Shown here: one piece after another, positions 6,799-18,814 of the stretch
Numbering within the stretch: the stretch's first letter is position 1
Layout: each line of letters starts with the position of its first letter
Notes under the pieces: generated by a model
Database searches by the model: none
What the model was told of the DNA's origin: nothing
What the model saw: only the letters and a program-made list of their open reading frames with translations
Program-made: the position numbers and the translations under genes
Origin: Acidobacteriota bacterium
GTDB taxonomy: Bacteria; Acidobacteriota; Vicinamibacteria; Vicinamibacterales; JAFNAJ01
Assembly (NCBI GenBank): GCA_017860085.1
Contig: JAFNAJ010000009.1
Coordinates: forward strand, 1 to 19,253
DNA length: 19,253 nucleotides
Direction: 5' to 3'

Positions 6799-6946
6799 TC
6801 TACGAGATTCGCGCAGCAAGGTCGATGCCGGCAGCGCCACGGCGCTGCGACCTGACGCGCACACGCCCGGGCGCACACGCGCTTACAGATTCCGGCCTCC
6901 GCTGCCGAGAAGGGAGGCCCTGCGGGGCCAGGCACTGGCTCAAATG

Positions 6947-6971
6947 GCCGCCGTTGATTACAATAGGCGGC
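6947..6971 (+). promoter_or_regulatory. AT-rich promoter-like island (TTGATT / TACAAT) bracketed by a GCCGCC/GGCGGC inverted repeat, upstream of the kinase gene
   Basis: GCCGCC (6947-6952), then gttgattacaata, then GGCGGC (6966-6971). TACAAT at 6959-6964 lies 17 nt before ATG 6981. It is the only AT-rich 13-mer in a very GC-rich divergent intergenic region (6877-6980). Confidence 0.25.
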
Positions 6972-6980
6972 ACCTCGGCC

Positions 6981-7448
6981 ATGTCAGATTCGTGCGAGTT
7001 CAACCCTGATGATCTGGTCGTCACCTTCGACCGCGTGTTCCCTGCGGACGCGGAGGAGATTGACGGCGTGGTCGAGTCGGTGATGTCGACCGTGGGCCGG
7101 ATGGGATGTGCCGACGGACGTGAGCACGACATCGAGCTCGCCCTTCGCGAGGCCCTGGCCAACGCCATCAGGCACGGGTGCAAGAACGATCCCTCGAAGC
7201 AGGTGCAGTGCATGGTGGCGTGTGACCAGCAGCGGGGGATACTCGTCGTCGTGCGGGACAGCGGTGAGGGCTTCGACCCCGCCGCCGTGCCCAGCCCGCT
7301 CGTCGGCGAGAACGTCTTTCGCCATCATGGCCGCGGCATCTACCTGATCAACCAGTTGATGGACGAGGTCAGGTTCGAAAAAGGGGGGACCGAGATCCAC
7401 ATGCGCAAGCGTGGGCCCCTGGCGCCCCTGTCCGACGACCAATCCTGA
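6981..7448 (+). CDS. RsbW/SpoIIAB-like anti-sigma regulatory factor (HATPase_c_2 serine protein kinase)
   Basis: The protein is 155 aa. It carries the N-box ELALREALANAIRHG, the G1 box VVRDSGEGFD, and the G2 region HGRGIYLINQLMDEV. Size and motifs are typical of partner-switching kinases. The ATG at 6981 is chosen over the upstream in-frame extension of the ORF track. Confidence 0.7.
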   Translation: MSDSCEFNPDDLVVTFDRVFPADAEEIDGVVESVMSTVGRMGCADGREHDIELALREALANAIRHGCKNDPSKQVQCMVACDQQRGILVVVRDSGEGFDPAAVPSPLVGENVFRHHGRGIYLINQLMDEVRFEKGGTEIHMRKRGPLAPLSDDQS

Positions 7449-7530: not shown

Positions 7531-9642
7531 ATGAGTCTCCGGTCCAAGCTGATCACTGCCTTCCTGCTGATGGCCGTGGTGCCGCTGGCGCTGGTGACCG
7601 TGGCGTCGTACCGGACCTCGGTGCGGGCATTCCGCCACGCGGTCGAAGCAGAGGCCGCCAGCCTGGCCGGCGACATGGGCCAGCGCATGGAGGTCGTGAC
7701 CAGCGAGATCGGCCGGCGGGTCGAGCGGGTCTGGGATGCGCCTGGATCCGACGAGTGGAGCATTGCCCAGGCCAGCGAGCACGTGGCCGCCCGGATTCCT
7801 GAGGGCCTGGCCGAGGCCCTCGGAGAGACCGCGCTGCTGCTCGAACGGGTCGAGGTGGTGCCGGTCGCCCCTGCCGCAAACGGGACGACCCGCGAGCACC
7901 GGTCATTCATTCTGAAAGGACACGTACCGCCGCCCCCGCCGCCCCCTGCCCCCGAGCCTGAACATGCCGCCCCCGCCGTACCGCCGCCCCCGCCGCCCAA
8001 AGTGGCCGTGGTGGCAGCGCCCGCCGCGTCGCGTGGCGAGGCGGTCGTCGTGGATCTCACCGGGGTGATGGAGGAACTGAAGCGCGAGATCGCCGGGCCA
8101 GCCGGCGATCCGCAGCGTGCGGCCGCCGCCGCGTGGGTGGACGTCGTCGGGCGTCAGGTCGTCACCGGCCTCGAACTGGGGCGGCGCTCGGCTGCTGCGG
8201 GGCTGCGCCTGGGCGCCGAAGAGCTGGCGCGCCAGGCCGAGCGGCACCAGTGGACGGTCGAGCGGAAGCGGGCCCTCATGCAGCGGGGCGAGATCGACGT
8301 GCCCGTCGAGCGCGAAGGCCGCGTCGTGGGCAAGGTCAATGCCCGCGTAGACCTCGAGCGCATGCTGGGCACCGTGCTCGCCTTGTCGCGGCGCGAGGCG
8401 GGCGAGGTGCCGTTCGCGATCGACGCGCAGCGCCGCGTGCACACGGCACGCGACAGCGACCGGGCCACGCTCGAGAACATCGGCGTGATGAGCGACGCGA
8501 AGGCGGGCAGCCTGCCGGAGGTCCGCTCGGACGACGACTGGATCGTCGTGACGAGGGCCGATTCGAGCGGCGTCGTGTTCGGGCTGGCGCGACCGGTGGC
8601 CGATTCGCTCGGCGAGATCCGGCGCACCTCCGTGCGCAACCTCGGCTTCGGCCTGGCGCTGATCGGCCTGGCGCTCATCGGGATCATTCCCGTGTCGCGT
8701 GGCATGACGCGCAACCTGTCAGTGCTGACTGACGGAGCCAACCAGTTGGCCCGGGGCGACCTCAGCGTCCGCGTTCCGGTGAAGTCCTCCGACGAGTTCG
8801 GTCACCTCGCCAGGTCGTTCAACCAGATGGCCGCAGGCCTGGAGTCGCATCAGAAACTGGTGGTCGAGCAGGAACGGCTGCACCGTGAGCTCGAGCTCTG
8901 CCGCCGGATCCAGACTGAAATGCTGCCGCGGACCCGCCTGCGGCTCGGGCTGGCCGAGATCAAGGGCATCTCGATTCCCGCGCGCGAGGTGGGCGGCGAC
9001 TTCTTCAACTACTTCGTCTTGCCCGACGGCAGCCTGGCGCTCGTCGTGGGCGACGTGTCGGGCAAGGGCGTGAGTGCGGCGCTGCTCATGGCAAACATCC
9101 AGGCCACGCTGCGCGCCCGCATGCCGCTCGAAAACGACCTCGCGCGGCTGGTAGAGACGATCGACCACGAAGTGGACGAGAACACACCAGGTGGCGTGTT
9201 TGTCACCCTGTTCGTGGGGATTCTCGACACCGAGCGCCGCGTGTTGCGGTACATCAACGCGGGTCACAACCCGCAGTTCGTCCTGCGGGCCAGCGGAAGC
9301 ATCGAACGGTTGTCGTCGGCTGGCCTGCCCGTGGGCCTCTATCCGGGCCAGGGCTACGCGGAGAGCGAAGTCGCCCTGGGCGATGCCGATCTGCTCTTCT
9401 TCTACACGGACGGCATGGTCGAGACCGAGAACGAGCGCGGCGACATGTTCAGCATCGACCGTCTGGAGGCGCTGCTGGTCGCCGAGCACCAGGCTGGCGT
9501 CGACGACTTGCTCGACCGCCTCGAACGCGTGGTGCGGGAGTTCAGGGGAACGGCCGAGCCTTTCGACGATGCCACCATGATGGCGCTGCGCCTCGACCGT
9601 GGACCAGCCCTCTCGTCGCCTCAGGTCCCCCTGGAACCGTAG
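7531..9642 (+). CDS. Membrane-anchored sensor PP2C serine phosphatase (TM - large extracytoplasmic region with poly-Pro tract - TM - HAMP - SpoIIE/RsbU-type PP2C)
   Basis: GAGGG at 7519-7523 lies 7 nt before the ATG. TM1 is LITAFLLMAVVPLALVTVASY and TM2 is LGFGLALIGLALIGIIPV. The HAMP region is LSVLTDGANQLARGDLSVRVPVKSSDEFGHLARSFNQMAAGL. PP2C motifs are present: VGGDFFNYF, LVVGDVSGKGVSAALLMA, FVTLFVGILD, YINAGHNP, LLFFYTDGMVE. A proline-rich stretch PPPPPPPAPEPEHAAPAVPPPPPPK lies in the extracytoplasmic region. Confidence 0.8.
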   Translation: MSLRSKLITAFLLMAVVPLALVTVASYRTSVRAFRHAVEAEAASLAGDMGQRMEVVTSEIGRRVERVWDAPGSDEWSIAQASEHVAARIPEGLAEALGETALLLERVEVVPVAPAANGTTREHRSFILKGHVPPPPPPPAPEPEHAAPAVPPPPPPKVAVVAAPAASRGEAVVVDLTGVMEELKREIAGPAGDPQRAAAAAWVDVVGRQVVTGLELGRRSAAAGLRLGAEELARQAERHQWTVERKRALMQRGEIDVPVEREGRVVGKVNARVDLERMLGTVLALSRREAGEVPFAIDAQRRVHTARDSDRATLENIGVMSDAKAGSLPEVRSDDDWIVVTRADSSGVVFGLARPVADSLGEIRRTSVRNLGFGLALIGLALIGIIPVSRGMTRNLSVLTDGANQLARGDLSVRVPVKSSDEFGHLARSFNQMAAGLESHQKLVVEQERLHRELELCRRIQTEMLPRTRLRLGLAEIKGISIPAREVGGDFFNYFVLPDGSLALVVGDVSGKGVSAALLMANIQATLRARMPLENDLARLVETIDHEVDENTPGGVFVTLFVGILDTERRVLRYINAGHNPQFVLRASGSIERLSSAGLPVGLYPGQGYAESEVALGDADLLFFYTDGMVETENERGDMFSIDRLEALLVAEHQAGVDDLLDRLERVVREFRGTAEPFDDATMMALRLDRGPALSSPQVPLEP
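7921..8005 (+). repeat. Low-complexity CCG/CCC (proline-codon) repeat tract inside the PP2C sensor gene
   Basis: ccgccgcccccgccgccccctgcccccgagcctgaacatgccgcccccgccgtaccgccgcccccgccgccc encodes the poly-Pro linker. It is coding low complexity, not a CRISPR or intergenic repeat. Confidence 0.6.
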
Positions 9643-14752: not shown

Positions 14753-15844
14753 TCAGTCGGCGTTGAGGAGGACCACCATGACGATGAGGAGGATCGCGAT
14801 GACGACGAGGGCGATCTTCCAGACGCTCTTCGGGTAGTCTCCGGCGATCTTGCCAGTGCACCCGTTGACGGCCACCTGGTAGGCCTTTGCTCCGTAGGTG
14901 TAGGAGAGAAACCAGACAGGCACCAGCACGTGCTTGAACGTGGGCCTCGAGAACTCAGGGTGGATGCTGAGGTTACGGTACGTGTCGCCAGGCACCTGCG
15001 CGCCGCACATCTCGGTGAGTTTCTGGCGCATCGCTTCCCGCGACATGTTCGCTGCCTCGACGAGCACCACCTGGTAGTGCTCGACGACGTGCCCCGAGAG
15101 GTAGCCGGTATCGTAGGGCACGAGCTCTGGTGTCGGGAACGGTTCGATCTGCCTGACGAGGTCCGTGCGCATGCCTCGCGTCCCAGGCACGGGCTCGTCG
15201 TCGAAGAAATGGTCGACGACTCCCGACGCCCATTCCCACCGGACCTTGCGCACCTGTCGGACCTGGGGGCGGCCACGACCGTCACGGACCTCCTCGCGCA
15301 CGTAGTAGTAGTGGCCCGCCTCGGCCTCCCAGGGGCAGTGCACTTGCGCGTCGAAGGTCCAGTAGGGAACGTACAGGCTGCGTACCGTGTCGACCAGAGC
15401 ACGGCGCTTGAGATTGCCCGGCGCGAACCACTTGCTGCCGAACCAGCGCCGGATGTCGTCGCGGACACGGCCGGCGCCGATCTTGAAAGGCAACAGGCTC
15501 TGCGGCGTGATCGGGGCCTTGATCTCCTCGTAGGGCACGAGCGCCGGCGAACCGCAGAACTCGCAGTTCTGGCCCACGCGTTCGGCGGGGAACACCATCA
15601 CCGCCTTGCAGCTCTGACACTGCACGCTGCGGCTCTCGAGGTGCCACCCGCGCAGCTCCTCGGGCAGGTCGCGGAGGGCCGTGACGAGATCAATCTCCTG
15701 GATCTTCCCGGTGTCCTTGTCGAACACGTAAGGCGACTCGGTGCCGCAGAACGGGCACACGAGGCGCTGACTGGCCGGGTTCCACTCGGCCTGGGCGCCG
15801 CACGCGGGACACGCGTGCTTCTCACGGGCGACGACGTCGGTCAT
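14753..15844 (-). CDS. Double zinc-ribbon protein with a central domain and a C-terminal transmembrane anchor (YdjG-like partner of the SPFH protein)
   Basis: Two CxxC-x(n)-CxxC ribbons are present: HACPACGAQAEWNPASQRLVCPFCG and VQCQSCKAVMVFPAERVGQNCEFCG. The C-terminus has a TM helix, VWKIALVVIAILLIVMVVLL. It lies immediately downstream of the SPFH gene on the same strand. Confidence 0.55.
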   Translation of the reverse strand: MTDVVAREKHACPACGAQAEWNPASQRLVCPFCGTESPYVFDKDTGKIQEIDLVTALRDLPEELRGWHLESRSVQCQSCKAVMVFPAERVGQNCEFCGSPALVPYEEIKAPITPQSLLPFKIGAGRVRDDIRRWFGSKWFAPGNLKRRALVDTVRSLYVPYWTFDAQVHCPWEAEAGHYYYVREEVRDGRGRPQVRQVRKVRWEWASGVVDHFFDDEPVPGTRGMRTDLVRQIEPFPTPELVPYDTGYLSGHVVEHYQVVLVEAANMSREAMRQKLTEMCGAQVPGDTYRNLSIHPEFSRPTFKHVLVPVWFLSYTYGAKAYQVAVNGCTGKIAGDYPKSVWKIALVVIAILLIVMVVLLNAD

Positions 15845-15914
15845 CGTTCAAAGAGGCGTGTGTCCAGCGGGCTGGTGGCGCGGCTGAACCTCGAGGCCTC
15901 GGCAAGGCTCCCGG

Positions 15915-16982
15915 TCAGCTGGCCAGGTAGGCATCGAGCGCACCGCGCGTCACGCGCCACGTCGATCCGATCTTCTTGCCTTTGAGATCGCCCGACTCGA
16001 GCACCGCGGTGACATCGGCCTCCGAGACACCCAGTGCCTGAGCGACATCGGCGACCGACAGCAGCGCTGCTGCCTCCGCGGGCGGGGGGCTGGCAGTCTT
16101 GCCAGGGCCGGCCGCGGCCGGCGCGCCCGCCATCATGCCGCTCTGCTGCATCATCTGCTGCGCAATGGCGAAGCCGACGGCGAGTTCCGTCGCCGTGCCG
16201 GCCGACCCGGTGCCGCCGGTCTCCATGCCCTTGGCCATCTGGTACTTGACGAAGTCGTTGAGGTTGCCAATCGTCGCCATGCTCGAGCGCTTGTCGATGG
16301 CCTGCTCGACCTCGGGCGGCACCGACACGTTCTCGACGATGAAGCTGGCGATATAGAGGCCGTACTTCGCCCCGACGACGGGGTTGACGAGGGGCAGCAG
16401 CGCATCGCCGAGCTCGCCGTAGCGGGTGGCCACGTCGAACACGGGGATCTTCGCCGATGCGAGCGCGTCGCTGAACACGCTGACCAGGCGCGACCGCATG
16501 GTGTCGGCGAACTCGTCGAGCCGGAAGTTCTGGTCCGAGCCGGCGACTTCCTTCAGGAAGAGCTTCGCATCGACCACCTTGACATCGTAGGTGCCGAACG
16601 CGCGCGCGCGGACAACACCGAGGTCGTCATCGCGCAGCATGATCGGATTGGCCGTGCCCCACTTGTTCCCCGTGAACAGCCGGGTGTTGATGTAGTAGAG
16701 GTCGGCCTTGAACGGCGAGTTGAACCCGTACTTCCATGACTTCAGGCGCGTCAGGACGGGGATGTTGTCGGTGGTGAGCGTGTGTTTGCCCGGTCCGAAG
16801 GTGTCGCCGAACTCGCCGAGGTACAGGAACTGCGCGACCTGGGACTCGCGCACGATCAGCTGGCAGCCGTTCTTGATCGCCTTGTCCTCGTCGGGGAACC
16901 GCCAGGAGAGCGTGTCGCGCGAGTCATCGGTCCACTCGATGATCTCGATCAGTTCGCCCTTGATGAAGTCGAGAATGCCCAT
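15915..16982 (-). CDS. SPFH/Band-7 family protein of the YdjI/COG4260 type with a C-terminal excisionase/MerR-like HTH_17 DNA-binding domain in place of the usual Zn-ribbon
   Basis: The N-terminal region is colinear with B. subtilis YdjI (MGILDFIKGELIEIIEWTDDS, WKYGFNSPFKADLYYINTRLF, Gly/Met-rich linker GMETGGTGSAGT...QQMMQQSGMMAG). The C-terminus LLSVADVAQALGVSEADVTAVLESGDLKGKKIGSTWRVTRGALDAYL matches the HTH_17/excisionase-family consensus (L.t..eaA..LgVs...v.....G.L...kiG..wRi....L..yl). GAGGAG lies 11 nt upstream of the ATG. Confidence 0.7.
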   Translation of the reverse strand: MGILDFIKGELIEIIEWTDDSRDTLSWRFPDEDKAIKNGCQLIVRESQVAQFLYLGEFGDTFGPGKHTLTTDNIPVLTRLKSWKYGFNSPFKADLYYINTRLFTGNKWGTANPIMLRDDDLGVVRARAFGTYDVKVVDAKLFLKEVAGSDQNFRLDEFADTMRSRLVSVFSDALASAKIPVFDVATRYGELGDALLPLVNPVVGAKYGLYIASFIVENVSVPPEVEQAIDKRSSMATIGNLNDFVKYQMAKGMETGGTGSAGTATELAVGFAIAQQMMQQSGMMAGAPAAAGPGKTASPPPAEAAALLSVADVAQALGVSEADVTAVLESGDLKGKKIGSTWRVTRGALDAYLAS

Positions 16983-17057: not shown

Positions 17058-17261
17058 CTAGTCGTTGAGGACGAAGGTGACCTTGAGGTCGACCCGGTAC
17101 TCCTTGATCTTGCCCTTCTCGACCTCGACCTTCATGCCCGACACCCACGCCCCGCGGACGTTCTTGAGGGTCTTGTTGGCCCGAACGATGCCCGACTTGA
17201 CGGCGTCGTCGAAGCTCTTGTCCGACGAGGAGATGATCTCGGTGACGCGTGCAACGGCCAT
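17058..17261 (-). CDS. Dodecin-family small flavin-binding protein
   Basis: The 67-aa protein MAVARVTEIISSSDKSFDDAVKSGIVRANKTLKNVRGAWVSGMKVEVEKGKIKEYRVDLKVTFVLND matches the dodecin pattern (V.k..El.gsS..s.edA...A...A.kTlrnv.......v.v..Gki..y.v.l.v.F..e). A strong RBS AGGAGG lies 4 nt before the ATG. Confidence 0.7.
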   Translation of the reverse strand: MAVARVTEIISSSDKSFDDAVKSGIVRANKTLKNVRGAWVSGMKVEVEKGKIKEYRVDLKVTFVLND

Positions 17262-17286: not shown

Positions 17287-17526
17287 TCAGTGGTCCAGAG
17301 GCGCCGCGTTGCCGCTGGGCGTGGAAGGCCGGCGGGTCTTCCACCGGCCGACCAGCGCAGTCAACAGCAGCAGGCCGAGCTCGTCGGCCAGCGGCACCAC
17401 GTCGGGCACGACGAAGTCCACCAGGGTGAGTGCCGCGAGGAGCACGAACAGCGTCGGGTACCTCAGGTCGAGACGCTCAATAAGACGGCCGACGAACGGG
17501 ATCGTGACGCGCGACGAGCTCGCCAT
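17287..17526 (-). CDS. Hypothetical small membrane protein (2 predicted TM helices), first gene of the dodecin/SPFH block
   Basis: The 79-aa protein has hydrophobic segments LFVLLAALTLVDFVV and LGLLLLTALVG. Its stop is 25 nt before the dodecin RBS. There is no clear SD of its own and no recognisable family. Confidence 0.35.
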   Translation of the reverse strand: MASSSRVTIPFVGRLIERLDLRYPTLFVLLAALTLVDFVVPDVVPLADELGLLLLTALVGRWKTRRPSTPSGNAAPLDH

Positions 17527-17586: not shown

Positions 17587-18420
17587 TCAGGCCGTGTGCT
17601 TGATCATGATGACCTCGTTGCCGCGCTCGTTGTAGACGAGTTCGTCGACGATTTGCTTCACGAGGAGCATCCCGAACCCACCTGGACGTCGGCCCTCCTC
17701 CGCCCGCCTGATGGCCGATGCCAGGACGTCGTCTGCCAGGCTCGTCTTGGCGGCGTGGGCCAGATCCTCCCGATCGAAGCCCGACCCGGGGTCGCGGAAG
17801 TGGTACACGATGGCCCGCGCGGTGTGAGCGGCCGTGACCTCGACGACCTTCTCCGGGTTGAACGCGGCGCCGTGCTCCATGGCGTTGATGAGCATCTCGC
17901 GAAACGCGGTCATCAGCAGATCGCGGTCGCCGCCAGGCACGTCCGACTGGTACTCGGTCATGAAGCGGACGAGGCGCTCGGCGGTGAGGAGGCGGCAACT
18001 GACGCGCAGCGTCACCCAGTGCGGGAGGCCAGACACCACCTCGATCCCGTCCGTCCAGTGATCGTCGGCGATCGCGGCGGCCACCATCTCAGCCACCTCG
18101 GCGAGATCGATCGGCGAGGAGAAACACGCGAACACGCTCGTCTTGAGCGCCTCGATGACGTCTTCGGGCGAGGTGGCGGGTGCCAGCACGATCAGGCGGA
18201 CACCTGGGCGGATCGCTCTGATCTCTCGCGCCAGCGCGAGGTCCTCGGCGACCGGCGTGGCCGGGTCGGTCAGCACGACGTCTACCGCGCGCTGCCGAAG
18301 CAGACGCACGGCCTCGACGCCCCCGGCGCAGGTGAGGATCTCGAGGCCGGGCAGCTTGTGATGCTTGTGCAGCGTGTCGAGCAGTTGGTCCGTCGGATGG
18401 ATGCAGAGGGCTCTGTGCAT
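17587..18420 (-). CDS. Fusion of a response-regulator receiver (REC-like) domain to a RsbW-type HATPase_c_2 ATPase/kinase domain
   Basis: The N-terminal receiver-like fold MHRALCIHPTDQ...AVDVVLTDPATP...VRLIVLAPA has the phospho-acceptor Asp in DVVLTD, but the usual N-terminal acidic pair is replaced by HPTDQ. The C-terminal part has the N-box FREMLINAMEHGA, G1 YHFRDPGSGFD, and G2 GGFGMLLVKQIVDEL. The start is chosen at ATG 18420 with GAGG 7 nt upstream. The ORF track extends to 18555 through low-complexity sequence. Confidence 0.65.
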   Translation of the reverse strand: MHRALCIHPTDQLLDTLHKHHKLPGLEILTCAGGVEAVRLLRQRAVDVVLTDPATPVAEDLALAREIRAIRPGVRLIVLAPATSPEDVIEALKTSVFACFSSPIDLAEVAEMVAAAIADDHWTDGIEVVSGLPHWVTLRVSCRLLTAERLVRFMTEYQSDVPGGDRDLLMTAFREMLINAMEHGAAFNPEKVVEVTAAHTARAIVYHFRDPGSGFDREDLAHAAKTSLADDVLASAIRRAEEGRRPGGFGMLLVKQIVDELVYNERGNEVIMIKHTA

Positions 18421-18451
18421 GGGTGAACCTCTGGTGCGGAGTCTACGGGGC

Positions 18452-18814
18452 TCAGGCGCCGCGGTTCCTGCCGCGTCCAGGGTCGATGACTTCAGGGTCG
18501 AGGAGTGCGATGACCTCCCGGGTCCGGCCTGGCCACCAGGCCGAGCCGAAGTCATGCGCCAGGATGCGGCGGACGATCGCGACAGGCTGGTGGGCGATGA
18601 GGCGGCTGAATCGCGCGCACTCGTCGGCGAGAGCGTGCCGCTCGTCGCGCGAGGCGTCAGCGAGGAAGACCTGGCGCGCCGCCTCGGCCGACCCGTACTC
18701 GGCCACGCACTCCTCGTGGAGGTAGGCGTGAAGGAACTCGGCGAGGACGGGGAAGTCGAGCCGACTCACGACCGGCGCGGCGCGCCGACTCGACGCTGTC
18801 CGCTGCGCACTCAT
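18452..18814 (-). CDS. CdiI-like immunity-protein family member (contact-dependent growth inhibition immunity fold), orphan
   Basis: LAEFLHAYLHEECVAEYGSAEAARQVFLADASRDERHALADECARF...DFGSAWWPG follows the remembered CdiI_2-type pattern (L..FiGaYfHQDWdleg.daeav...f........l..El..ll). The RBS GGAGG lies 7 nt before the ATG at 18814. No toxin-like gene is visible upstream in the window. Confidence 0.4.
   Translation of the reverse strand: MSAQRTASSRRAAPVVSRLDFPVLAEFLHAYLHEECVAEYGSAEAARQVFLADASRDERHALADECARFSRLIAHQPVAIVRRILAHDFGSAWWPGRTREVIALLDPEVIDPGRGRNRGA

Follow-up and report, generated by a model that had tools for sequence, protein, structure and literature searches.

The closest described relative of the protein discussed here is YdjI of Bacillus subtilis, a soluble SPFH protein with a C-terminal zinc finger, which depends on YdjG and YdjH for its localization at the membrane (PMC8581546). 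YdjI recruits PspA, and YdjI, YdjG and YdjH, also named SamI, SamG and SamH, are products of the pspA-ydjGHI operon. SamI restrains signalling by SamGH (bioRxiv 10.64898/2026.02.06.704340), and the architecture described for YdjG combines two zinc ribbons at the N-terminus with a YpeB-related α+β domain and a transmembrane (TM) segment (PMC11237479). Fusions of such SPFH domains to SHOCT have also been described, PF13421 (Band_7_1) being the commonest partner domain of SHOCT (PMC3581485). Here, we analyzed a complete contig of 19,253 bases from the metagenome-assembled genome (MAG) of a soil Acidobacterium, referred to as the window, which carries on its reverse strand a gene joining a Band_7_1 SPFH domain to a C-terminal helix-turn-helix (HTH) domain, the SPFH-HTH gene. 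We propose that its product is a YdjI/SamI-like scaffold lying beneath the membrane, in which the HTH would serve as a tethered docking module and not as a sequence-specific regulator. This reading as a whole we hold with moderate confidence, and the assignment of the protein to the YdjI/SamI type, COG4260, with high confidence.

The SPFH-HTH gene (Table 1) starts with ATG and codes for a protein of 355 amino acids. Its translation reproduces exactly the linker, GMETGGTGSAGT...QQMMQQSGMMAGAPAAAGPG, as well as the tail, LLSVADVAQALGVSEADVTAVLESGDLKGKKIGSTWRVTRGALDAYL, that had been singled out in a first-pass annotation of the window, and the segment concerned, positions 15915-16070, corresponds to residues 305-355 and the stop codon. 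That annotation had named the product a YdjI-type SPFH protein with a C-terminal excisionase-family HTH, and both parts of the description hold. In Pfam, PF13421 matches residues 27-236 (E 6.9e-79, 264.8 bits against a gathering score of 24) and HTH_17 (PF12728) scores 36.0 bits on residues 307-354, where the gathering score is 27, or 39.9 bits when the last 71 residues are searched by themselves. The NCBIfam model TIGR01764 ('excisionase family DNA-binding') scores 28.2 bits on the full protein, just below its cut-off of 28.8, and 32.3 bits on the isolated tail. By structural comparison, the central part of the protein resembles stomatin, HflK/C, prohibitin and flotillin, and the tail has a MerR-like winged HTH fold (beta-alpha-alpha-beta-beta-alpha), which in the AlphaFold 2 (AF2) model superposes on BldC and the Pukovnik Xis at 1.3-1.6 Å. 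BldC, Xis and RdfS are its top structural neighbours, with RacA also listed. When PDB sequences were searched with nothing but the tail, all matches were at chance level; a profile built from it reaches the closest solved relatives in sequence, which are the Pukovnik Xis, with an E value of 0.004, and BldC, with one of 0.28.

The protein shares with B. subtilis YdjI/SamI the Band_7_1 core, the absence of a membrane anchor (the best 19-residue hydropathy window, 1.4, lies within the SPFH fold, as in a soluble protein) and a low-complexity linker followed by a single small C-terminal module. It differs from it in that this module is an HTH_17 domain and not a zinc finger; since no cysteine occurs beyond residue 40, there is no zinc ribbon in the tail. 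The helical segment behind the SPFH domain may serve in oligomerization, by reference to solved SPFH cages.

The architecture is widespread, common in soil metagenomes and already recognized by RefSeq, where "SPFH and helix-turn-helix domain-containing protein" is the NCBI product name in use; no description of it was found in the literature searched. JGI names the same proteins 'excisionase family DNA binding protein', a label that is misleading because nothing ties SPFH-HTH proteins to recombination. Both domains appear to be present in all 120 of the best database homologues listed (73-99% identical to the window protein), in 119 according to precomputed Pfam matches and in P0093 by its aligned tail. 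Soil Acidobacteria are rich in the family, with thousands of metagenomic copies. A scan with one genome per species found a relative in at least 596 genomes, and in the best 80 of these the matches span residues 1 (or 3) to 352-355. These best 80 carriers belong to the Acidobacteriota (Vicinamibacterales and Bryobacterales), the Verrucomicrobiota, among them the isolate Opitutaceae bacterium EW11, the Burkholderiales/Casimicrobiaceae and the Acidimicrobiia. Cultured Comamonas odontotermitis (WLL) carries an SPFH-HTH gene on a 373-kb replicon, under the same RefSeq name as the family. Several of the MAG records bear implausible taxon labels, for example 'Bifidobacteriaceae'.

For a closer comparison, 82 loci were fetched; they were assembled independently, come from several phyla and include complete chromosomes. 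In 83 sequences of the family, pairwise identity averages 0.82 within the SPFH domain, 0.70 within the helices at 241-282, 0.30 within the linker (283-305) and 0.65 within the HTH, and the HTH tail is under purifying selection. Between the GNLNDF motif and the HTH lie 50-78 residues, the distal part of which consists of 36% Ala, 17% Pro and 14% Gly.

What stands at the C-terminus varies widely across the family. A search with the SPFH domain alone (residues 1-245) against 1.84 billion representative proteins returned 3,977 relatives, from which 48 representatives with intact, unscrambled tails were taken (45 full-length and three that lack part of the N-terminus; identity with the window protein, 30-66%). 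According to Pfam, 15 of these end in a double zinc ribbon, 14 in GYF_2, 11 in SHOCT, two in HTH_17 and one each in TerD and SWIM. In a neighbour-joining tree of the SPFH domains, all HTH types form a single tight clade that adjoins zinc-ribbon types, the zinc-ribbon types themselves are dispersed across the tree, and the GYF_2 types largely, and the SHOCT types partly, fall into clusters of their own. Because the tail module varies among relatives and clusters in the tree, the C-terminus of the Band_7_1 SPFH family is a swap slot, where modules have been exchanged again and again in evolution. The domain swap put forward in the first-pass annotation is thus real, and the HTH does occupy the place of the B. 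subtilis zinc finger, with zinc-ribbon types as its nearest non-HTH relatives. The single canonical zinc-ribbon ending assumed there does not stand, as with only 15 of 48 diverse relatives carrying one, the zinc ribbon does not define the family as a whole. From the tree, the likeliest ancestral tail would still be the zinc ribbon, and the HTH was probably acquired once. The SHOCT, GYF_2 and double-zinc-ribbon variants have the core and the linker in common with the window protein and place their terminal module at the same point, and differ from it in the fold of that module; the HTH variant, the rarest of these four kinds, accounts for two of the 48 and for one clade only, and the SPFH domains of the zinc-ribbon types are only about 40-50% identical to that of the window protein. 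A protein of 372 amino acids from the representative set, P0261, forms the sister lineage of the HTH clade. Its tail (…SLQEASNTFGVSVKALEDAVEGGKLPAYELLGEKVV…) is HTH-like in appearance and has no Pfam match, and possibly it goes back to this HTH acquisition as a further diverged relative.

The gene directly downstream (Table 1) encodes a protein with two N-terminal zinc ribbons, formed by the CxxC pairs C12/C15 and C30/C33 and the pairs C76/C79 and C94/C97, followed by a confidently modelled α+β domain (about residues 114-340) and a C-terminal TM helix (341-362; hydropathy of residues 344-362, 3.25). The AF2 model of the protein has a pLDDT (predicted local distance difference test) of 76.5. 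Pfam finds only weak zinc-ribbon matches in it. By the architecture described for YdjG, it is probably a partner of the YdjG/SamG type. A homologue lies directly 3' of the SPFH-HTH gene on the same strand in 79 of the 82 loci; of the other three, one comes with too short a flanking sequence, and in two no homologue lies within about 5 kb. As the spacers are short (median 50 bp in 74 loci, no longer than 200 bp in 62 of these), we infer that the two genes are co-transcribed; the spacer in the window contains no promoter-consensus site or intrinsic terminator. A third conserved gene was sought across the 82 loci and none was found, the partner being the only other neighbour conserved throughout, and the flanks of the pair differ between genomes. 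Six loci (L043, L044, L050, L077, L079, L080) have about 70% identity to the window in the SPFH-HTH protein and 53-58% in the partner, and such identity across Acidobacteriota, Verrucomicrobiota and Betaproteobacteria is unusually high, which suggests horizontal spread of the two-gene module.

The same partner family accompanies SPFH genes with other tails. In Enterococcus gallinarum it adjoins a zinc-ribbon-type SPFH gene, with a TPM-domain (YdjH-like) gene following, and in Vibrio coralliilyticus, Paracoccus ferrooxidans and Tsukamurella tyrosinosolvens it adjoins GYF_2-type SPFH genes. The partner proteins of these four, of Comamonas and of the window align colinearly, with C12, C15, C33, C76, C79, C94 and C97 invariant, and the window protein finds the Enterococcus protein with an E value of 5e-32 (BLASTP). 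It had been suggested that the zinc ribbons lost from the SPFH protein had moved to the adjacent gene. We can discard this idea, since the partner has its own ribbons whatever the tail of the SPFH protein. The locus differs from pspA-ydjGHI of B. subtilis in gene order, with the SPFH gene preceding the partner, and in that neither the operon nor the 19-kb window contains pspA or a TPM/YdjH gene.

Does the HTH read DNA? In the BldC-DNA complex, Lys26 and Arg30 read bases, Thr27, Thr29, Trp31 and Lys33 hold phosphates, and the wing residues His46, Arg47 and Arg48 enter the minor groove; the substitution R30A or H46E abolishes binding (PMC5859096). BldC residues K26, T27, T29, R30, W31, K33 and K36 correspond to residues 322, 323, 325, 326, 327, 329 and 332 of the window protein, which has Ala, Asp, Met, Ala, Ile and Glu at the first six of them. 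Across the 83 sequences, position 322 is Ala, Ser or Thr, 323 is Asp without exception (83/83), 325 is Met or Leu, 326 is Ala, Thr or Ser, 327 is Ile or Val, 329 is Glu in 64 and 332 is Glu or Asp, so that not one has Lys or Arg at a contact position of the BldC recognition helix. The domain as a whole has a mean net charge of -1.1 (range -3 to 0), compared with +4 for the aligned part of Xis, and over the span aligned with BldC the charge is +3 in BldC and -4 in the window protein. Recombination directionality factors (RDFs) are, as a rule, small proteins with a positive charge, and the recognition helix of RdfS is basic (PMC11963761). BldC, the Pukovnik Xis (Gp37) and RdfS are free-standing, net-basic proteins with Lys, Arg, Thr and Trp on the recognition helix (PMC5859096, PMC11963761), whereas the window HTH is a net-acidic C-terminal appendage without a recombinase partner. 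Of the features of the excisionase family, the net positive charge and the basic or polar recognition helix are absent, and the basic wing is present. The tail has thus kept the HTH fold and lost the residues for reading DNA, only the wing being basic. What had been called a textbook DNA-binding HTH is one in fold, and its contact residues speak against the rest of that description. Given the lack of Lys or Arg at the contact positions and the net-acidic domain, a direct coupling of the membrane to transcription, or recognition of DNA or phage, which had been suggested as well, is less likely to be the task of this HTH.

The upstream regions agree with this in that no operator-like motif is shared within 160 nt upstream of the SPFH start at 81 loci, as judged by k-mer enrichment against a control, which is a weak test. 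The only enriched word, TAGAAT, is a -10-like hexamer (31 of 81 loci, none in the control). A second recurring word was rejected as an operator because it is the coding start (M..LHCPNCG) of a divergent neighbour gene. In L004, L013, L014, L016, L018, L026 and L034 the sequence CAGTTCGGACAATGCAG is found about 60-110 nt upstream of the SPFH start; it is the reverse strand of the start of this divergent zinc-finger gene, which is present in some Vicinamibacterales.

We propose that the SPFH-HTH protein is a soluble, cytoplasmic, oligomerizing scaffold without a membrane anchor of its own, and that its recruitment to the inner membrane face would fall to the tail-anchored partner of the YdjG/SamG type with which it is co-transcribed. 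By analogy with other SPFH proteins, the oligomer would present many copies of the HTH on flexible tethers of roughly 50-80 residues. In one lineage, an excisionase/MerR-like winged HTH would have replaced the probably ancestral zinc ribbon, and the two-gene module would then have spread, or been retained, across several phyla. We suggest that the HTH is neither a sequence-specific transcription factor nor an excisionase and that it has been repurposed to capture a partner molecule, a proposal that takes up the lack of basic and DNA-contacting side chains on the recognition helix and the invariant Asp323. The ligand is most likely a protein; nucleic acid, bound by the wing at low specificity, is a less likely candidate. 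MerR-like folds have been solved in protein complexes, namely CbpM with the J-domain of CbpA, DafA with Hsp70-Hsp40 and RppC with a small terminase, and also TorI; the window HTH has only the fold in common with these, without a detectable sequence relationship, and their partners are unrelated to SPFH systems. By analogy with SamGHI, the probable role of the gene pair is in scaffolding or signalling under envelope stress.

On present evidence, the SPFH-HTH variant provides no direct link from membrane to transcription. It offers instead a natural experiment on the role of the C-terminal module in YdjI-type SPFH proteins. The swapping at the slot, the YdjG-like anchor that stays constant across variants and the HTH fold kept without its DNA-reading residues together narrow the question to the ligand or task that zinc-ribbon, GYF_2, SHOCT and HTH tails have in common. 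Two cultured carriers, Comamonas odontotermitis WLL and Opitutaceae bacterium EW11, should make experiments feasible.

Several observations weigh against the docking-module proposal. The wing positions K336, K337, R343 (invariant) and R346 are always basic in the 83 sequences, and position 342, which corresponds to His46 of BldC, is aromatic (Tyr or Trp). No pspA or TPM/YdjH gene was found among the open reading frames (ORFs) of the window or the conserved neighbours at the 82 loci, and with PspA and TPM/YdjH absent the functional analogy to B. subtilis may be loose. The partner stands beside a Band_7_1 relative in only 12 of 155 plasmid or chromid records, and a Ralstonia copy lies in a different context, with DUF350 and membrane-protein genes. 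The 48 proteins behind the count of tail modules were filtered by hand for intact tails. Lastly, the AF2 model of the whole protein is of low quality, with a mean pLDDT of 54 and the first 99 residues unmodelled, because the input alignment was confined to sequences of 73% identity or more; the usable portions of this single-chain model are the HTH and a part of the SPFH domain, and the oligomeric geometry is therefore pure analogy.

The basic wing is also what keeps alive the main alternative, which we consider unlikely, that the tail is a working DNA-binding HTH, either as a RacA-like membrane tether of chromosomal or foreign DNA or as a membrane-sequestered transcription factor through which gene expression would respond to the state of the membrane. 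Binding of DNA or RNA at low specificity through the wing, aided by the avidity of an oligomer, would fit the conserved basic residues and the aromatic residue at 342, and the HTH_17 score above threshold and the excisionase/MerR fold, with RacA among the structural neighbours, fit as well. DUF2089 proteins, moreover, join zinc ribbon, HTH and SHOCT-like domains in PSP-like (phage shock protein-like) contexts (PMC11237479), and loss of SamI in B. subtilis leads to global transcriptional changes (bioRxiv 10.64898/2026.02.06.704340). This last effect is ascribed to unrestrained SamGH signalling and not to DNA binding, however, and the loss of BldC binding through R30A alone stands against a family in which the equivalents of K26, R30, K33 and K36 are never basic, the recognition helix has Asp323 without exception, the domain is acidic on balance and the upstream regions share no operator-like motif. 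RacA itself, which anchors the chromosome in B. subtilis, contacts bases with the Arg equivalent to BldC Arg30 (PMC5859096), whereas the window family has Ala, Thr or Ser there. In addition, sister clades hold GYF_2 or SHOCT in the same slot, neither of which is an established DNA binder.

A further possibility, to which we give still less weight, is that the SPFH oligomer forms a ring of at least a dozen winged HTH domains, which would bind by the wing only and without reading sequence, and which on their tethers of 50-80 residues would hold nucleic acid at the membrane. What is held could be the nucleoid, or else DNA or RNA laid open where the membrane is damaged. In that case, tails with a zinc ribbon, SHOCT, GYF_2 or HTH would be different ways of performing a single, hitherto unrecognized task of YdjI-type scaffolds, a physical link from the membrane to the nucleoid or to ribonucleoprotein in the handling of envelope stress.

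That the protein is a remnant of a mobile element or part of an anti-phage system, with an excisionase/RDF-type or MADS-type HTH through which the SPFH protein would sense or act on phage DNA, we regard as very improbable. Excisionases of phages and of integrative and conjugative elements are among the closest solved relatives of the tail, PADLOC assigns the HTH to mad1 with 30.5 bits (the partner has no match), NCBIfam MADS1 scores 17.5 bits on it, and in Vibrio the homologous pair lies near a TIR-domain gene. The MADS1 score is far below the family cut-off of 80, and both matches are generic HTH_17 similarity. No integrase, att-like repeats, mobile-element genes, other MADS genes or defence genes were seen in the window or the conserved neighbourhood, the genes on either side have common housekeeping functions and vary from genome to genome, and a tblastn search of 50,697 phage records gave six weak matches to the SPFH domain only, none covering the HTH. 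The link to phage that had been drawn earlier finds no support in this context. The idea that a frameshift, an assembly error or a missed stop codon has joined an SPFH gene to a small excisionase gene can be put aside altogether despite the GC-rich, low-complexity and hence indel-prone kind of linker and the JGI name that calls entire proteins excisionases, because the fusion lies in a single uninterrupted frame at 82 of 82 loci, some of them on complete chromosomes and two in isolates, Opitutaceae EW11 and Comamonas odontotermitis WLL, with linkers of differing length and sequence that contain no stop there or in any aligned homologue.

Table 1. Features of the 19,253-base window, in order of position.
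Feature	Position	Strand	Remarks
Sortilin/Vps10-BNR repeat protein, 1,090 amino acids	2752-6024	+	unrelated to SPFH-HTH
RsbW-like stand-alone HATPase_c_2 protein	6825-7448	+	
HAMP+SpoIIE (PP2C) phosphatase	7531-9642	+	
YdjG/SamG-like partner gene, 363 amino acids, tail-anchored	14753..15844	-	ORF directly downstream of SPFH-HTH gene, same strand
Spacer between SPFH-HTH and partner genes, 70 bp	15845..15914	-	
SPFH-HTH gene (probable YdjI/SamI-family variant), stop codon included	15915..16982	-	ORF; Pfam Band_7_1 + HTH_17
HTH_17 / excisionase-fold winged HTH, residues 307-354	15921..16064	-	helix 2 (321-330) acidic, wing (334-346) basic
Ala/Pro/Gly low-complexity linker, residues 281-306	16065..16142	-	pLDDT <50
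Post-SPFH helical segment, residues 241-280, presumed oligomerization region	16143..16262	-	AF2 helices 241-254 and 261-280, low confidence
SPFH (Band_7_1) domain, residues 27-236	16275..16904	-	
Dodecin gene	17058-17261	-	PF07311, E 1.5e-24; ends 75 bp before SPFH start
Small DUF6116 protein gene	17287-17526	-	upstream of dodecin gene
Receiver domain fused to HATPase_c_2	17587-18555	-	about 600 bp upstream of SPFH gene
ORF of 138 amino acids	18452-18868	-	borderline CdiI_2 immunity-protein match, 27.2 bits against cut-off of 26.7

Some loci depart from the arrangement seen in the window, and extra small ORFs between the two genes of the pair are restricted to sub-lineages. In Burkholderiales/Casimicrobiaceae, a gene for a signal-peptide protein of about 140 amino acids is inserted between them (L060, 6056-6475; L062, L068, L079, L081), and L042 and L069 have a gene for a protein of about 270 amino acids (MPIHCPVQIK...) at this place; these genes are possibly lineage-specific third components or insertions. 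An MsrB-like gene is found near the operon in 24 loci. On the Ralstonia solanacearum megaplasmid (L088, 3492-4517), the Band_7_1 homologue is annotated as 'ydjI: antifreeze protein, type I', which is ill-fitting for an SPFH protein and may have been prompted by an Ala-rich linker, and stands with DUF350 and membrane-protein genes without a YdjG-like partner.

In the window itself, no CdiA-like toxin was seen to go with the borderline immunity-protein match. The dodecin gene is followed by a GC-rich hairpin, GACCCCTTcctggAAAGGGGTC, without a T-tract. The genes at 6825-7448, 7531-9642 and 17587-18555 are of the partner-switching type of signalling, in an arrangement not kept at other loci, and the last of them is separated from the SPFH gene by the dodecin and DUF6116 genes.

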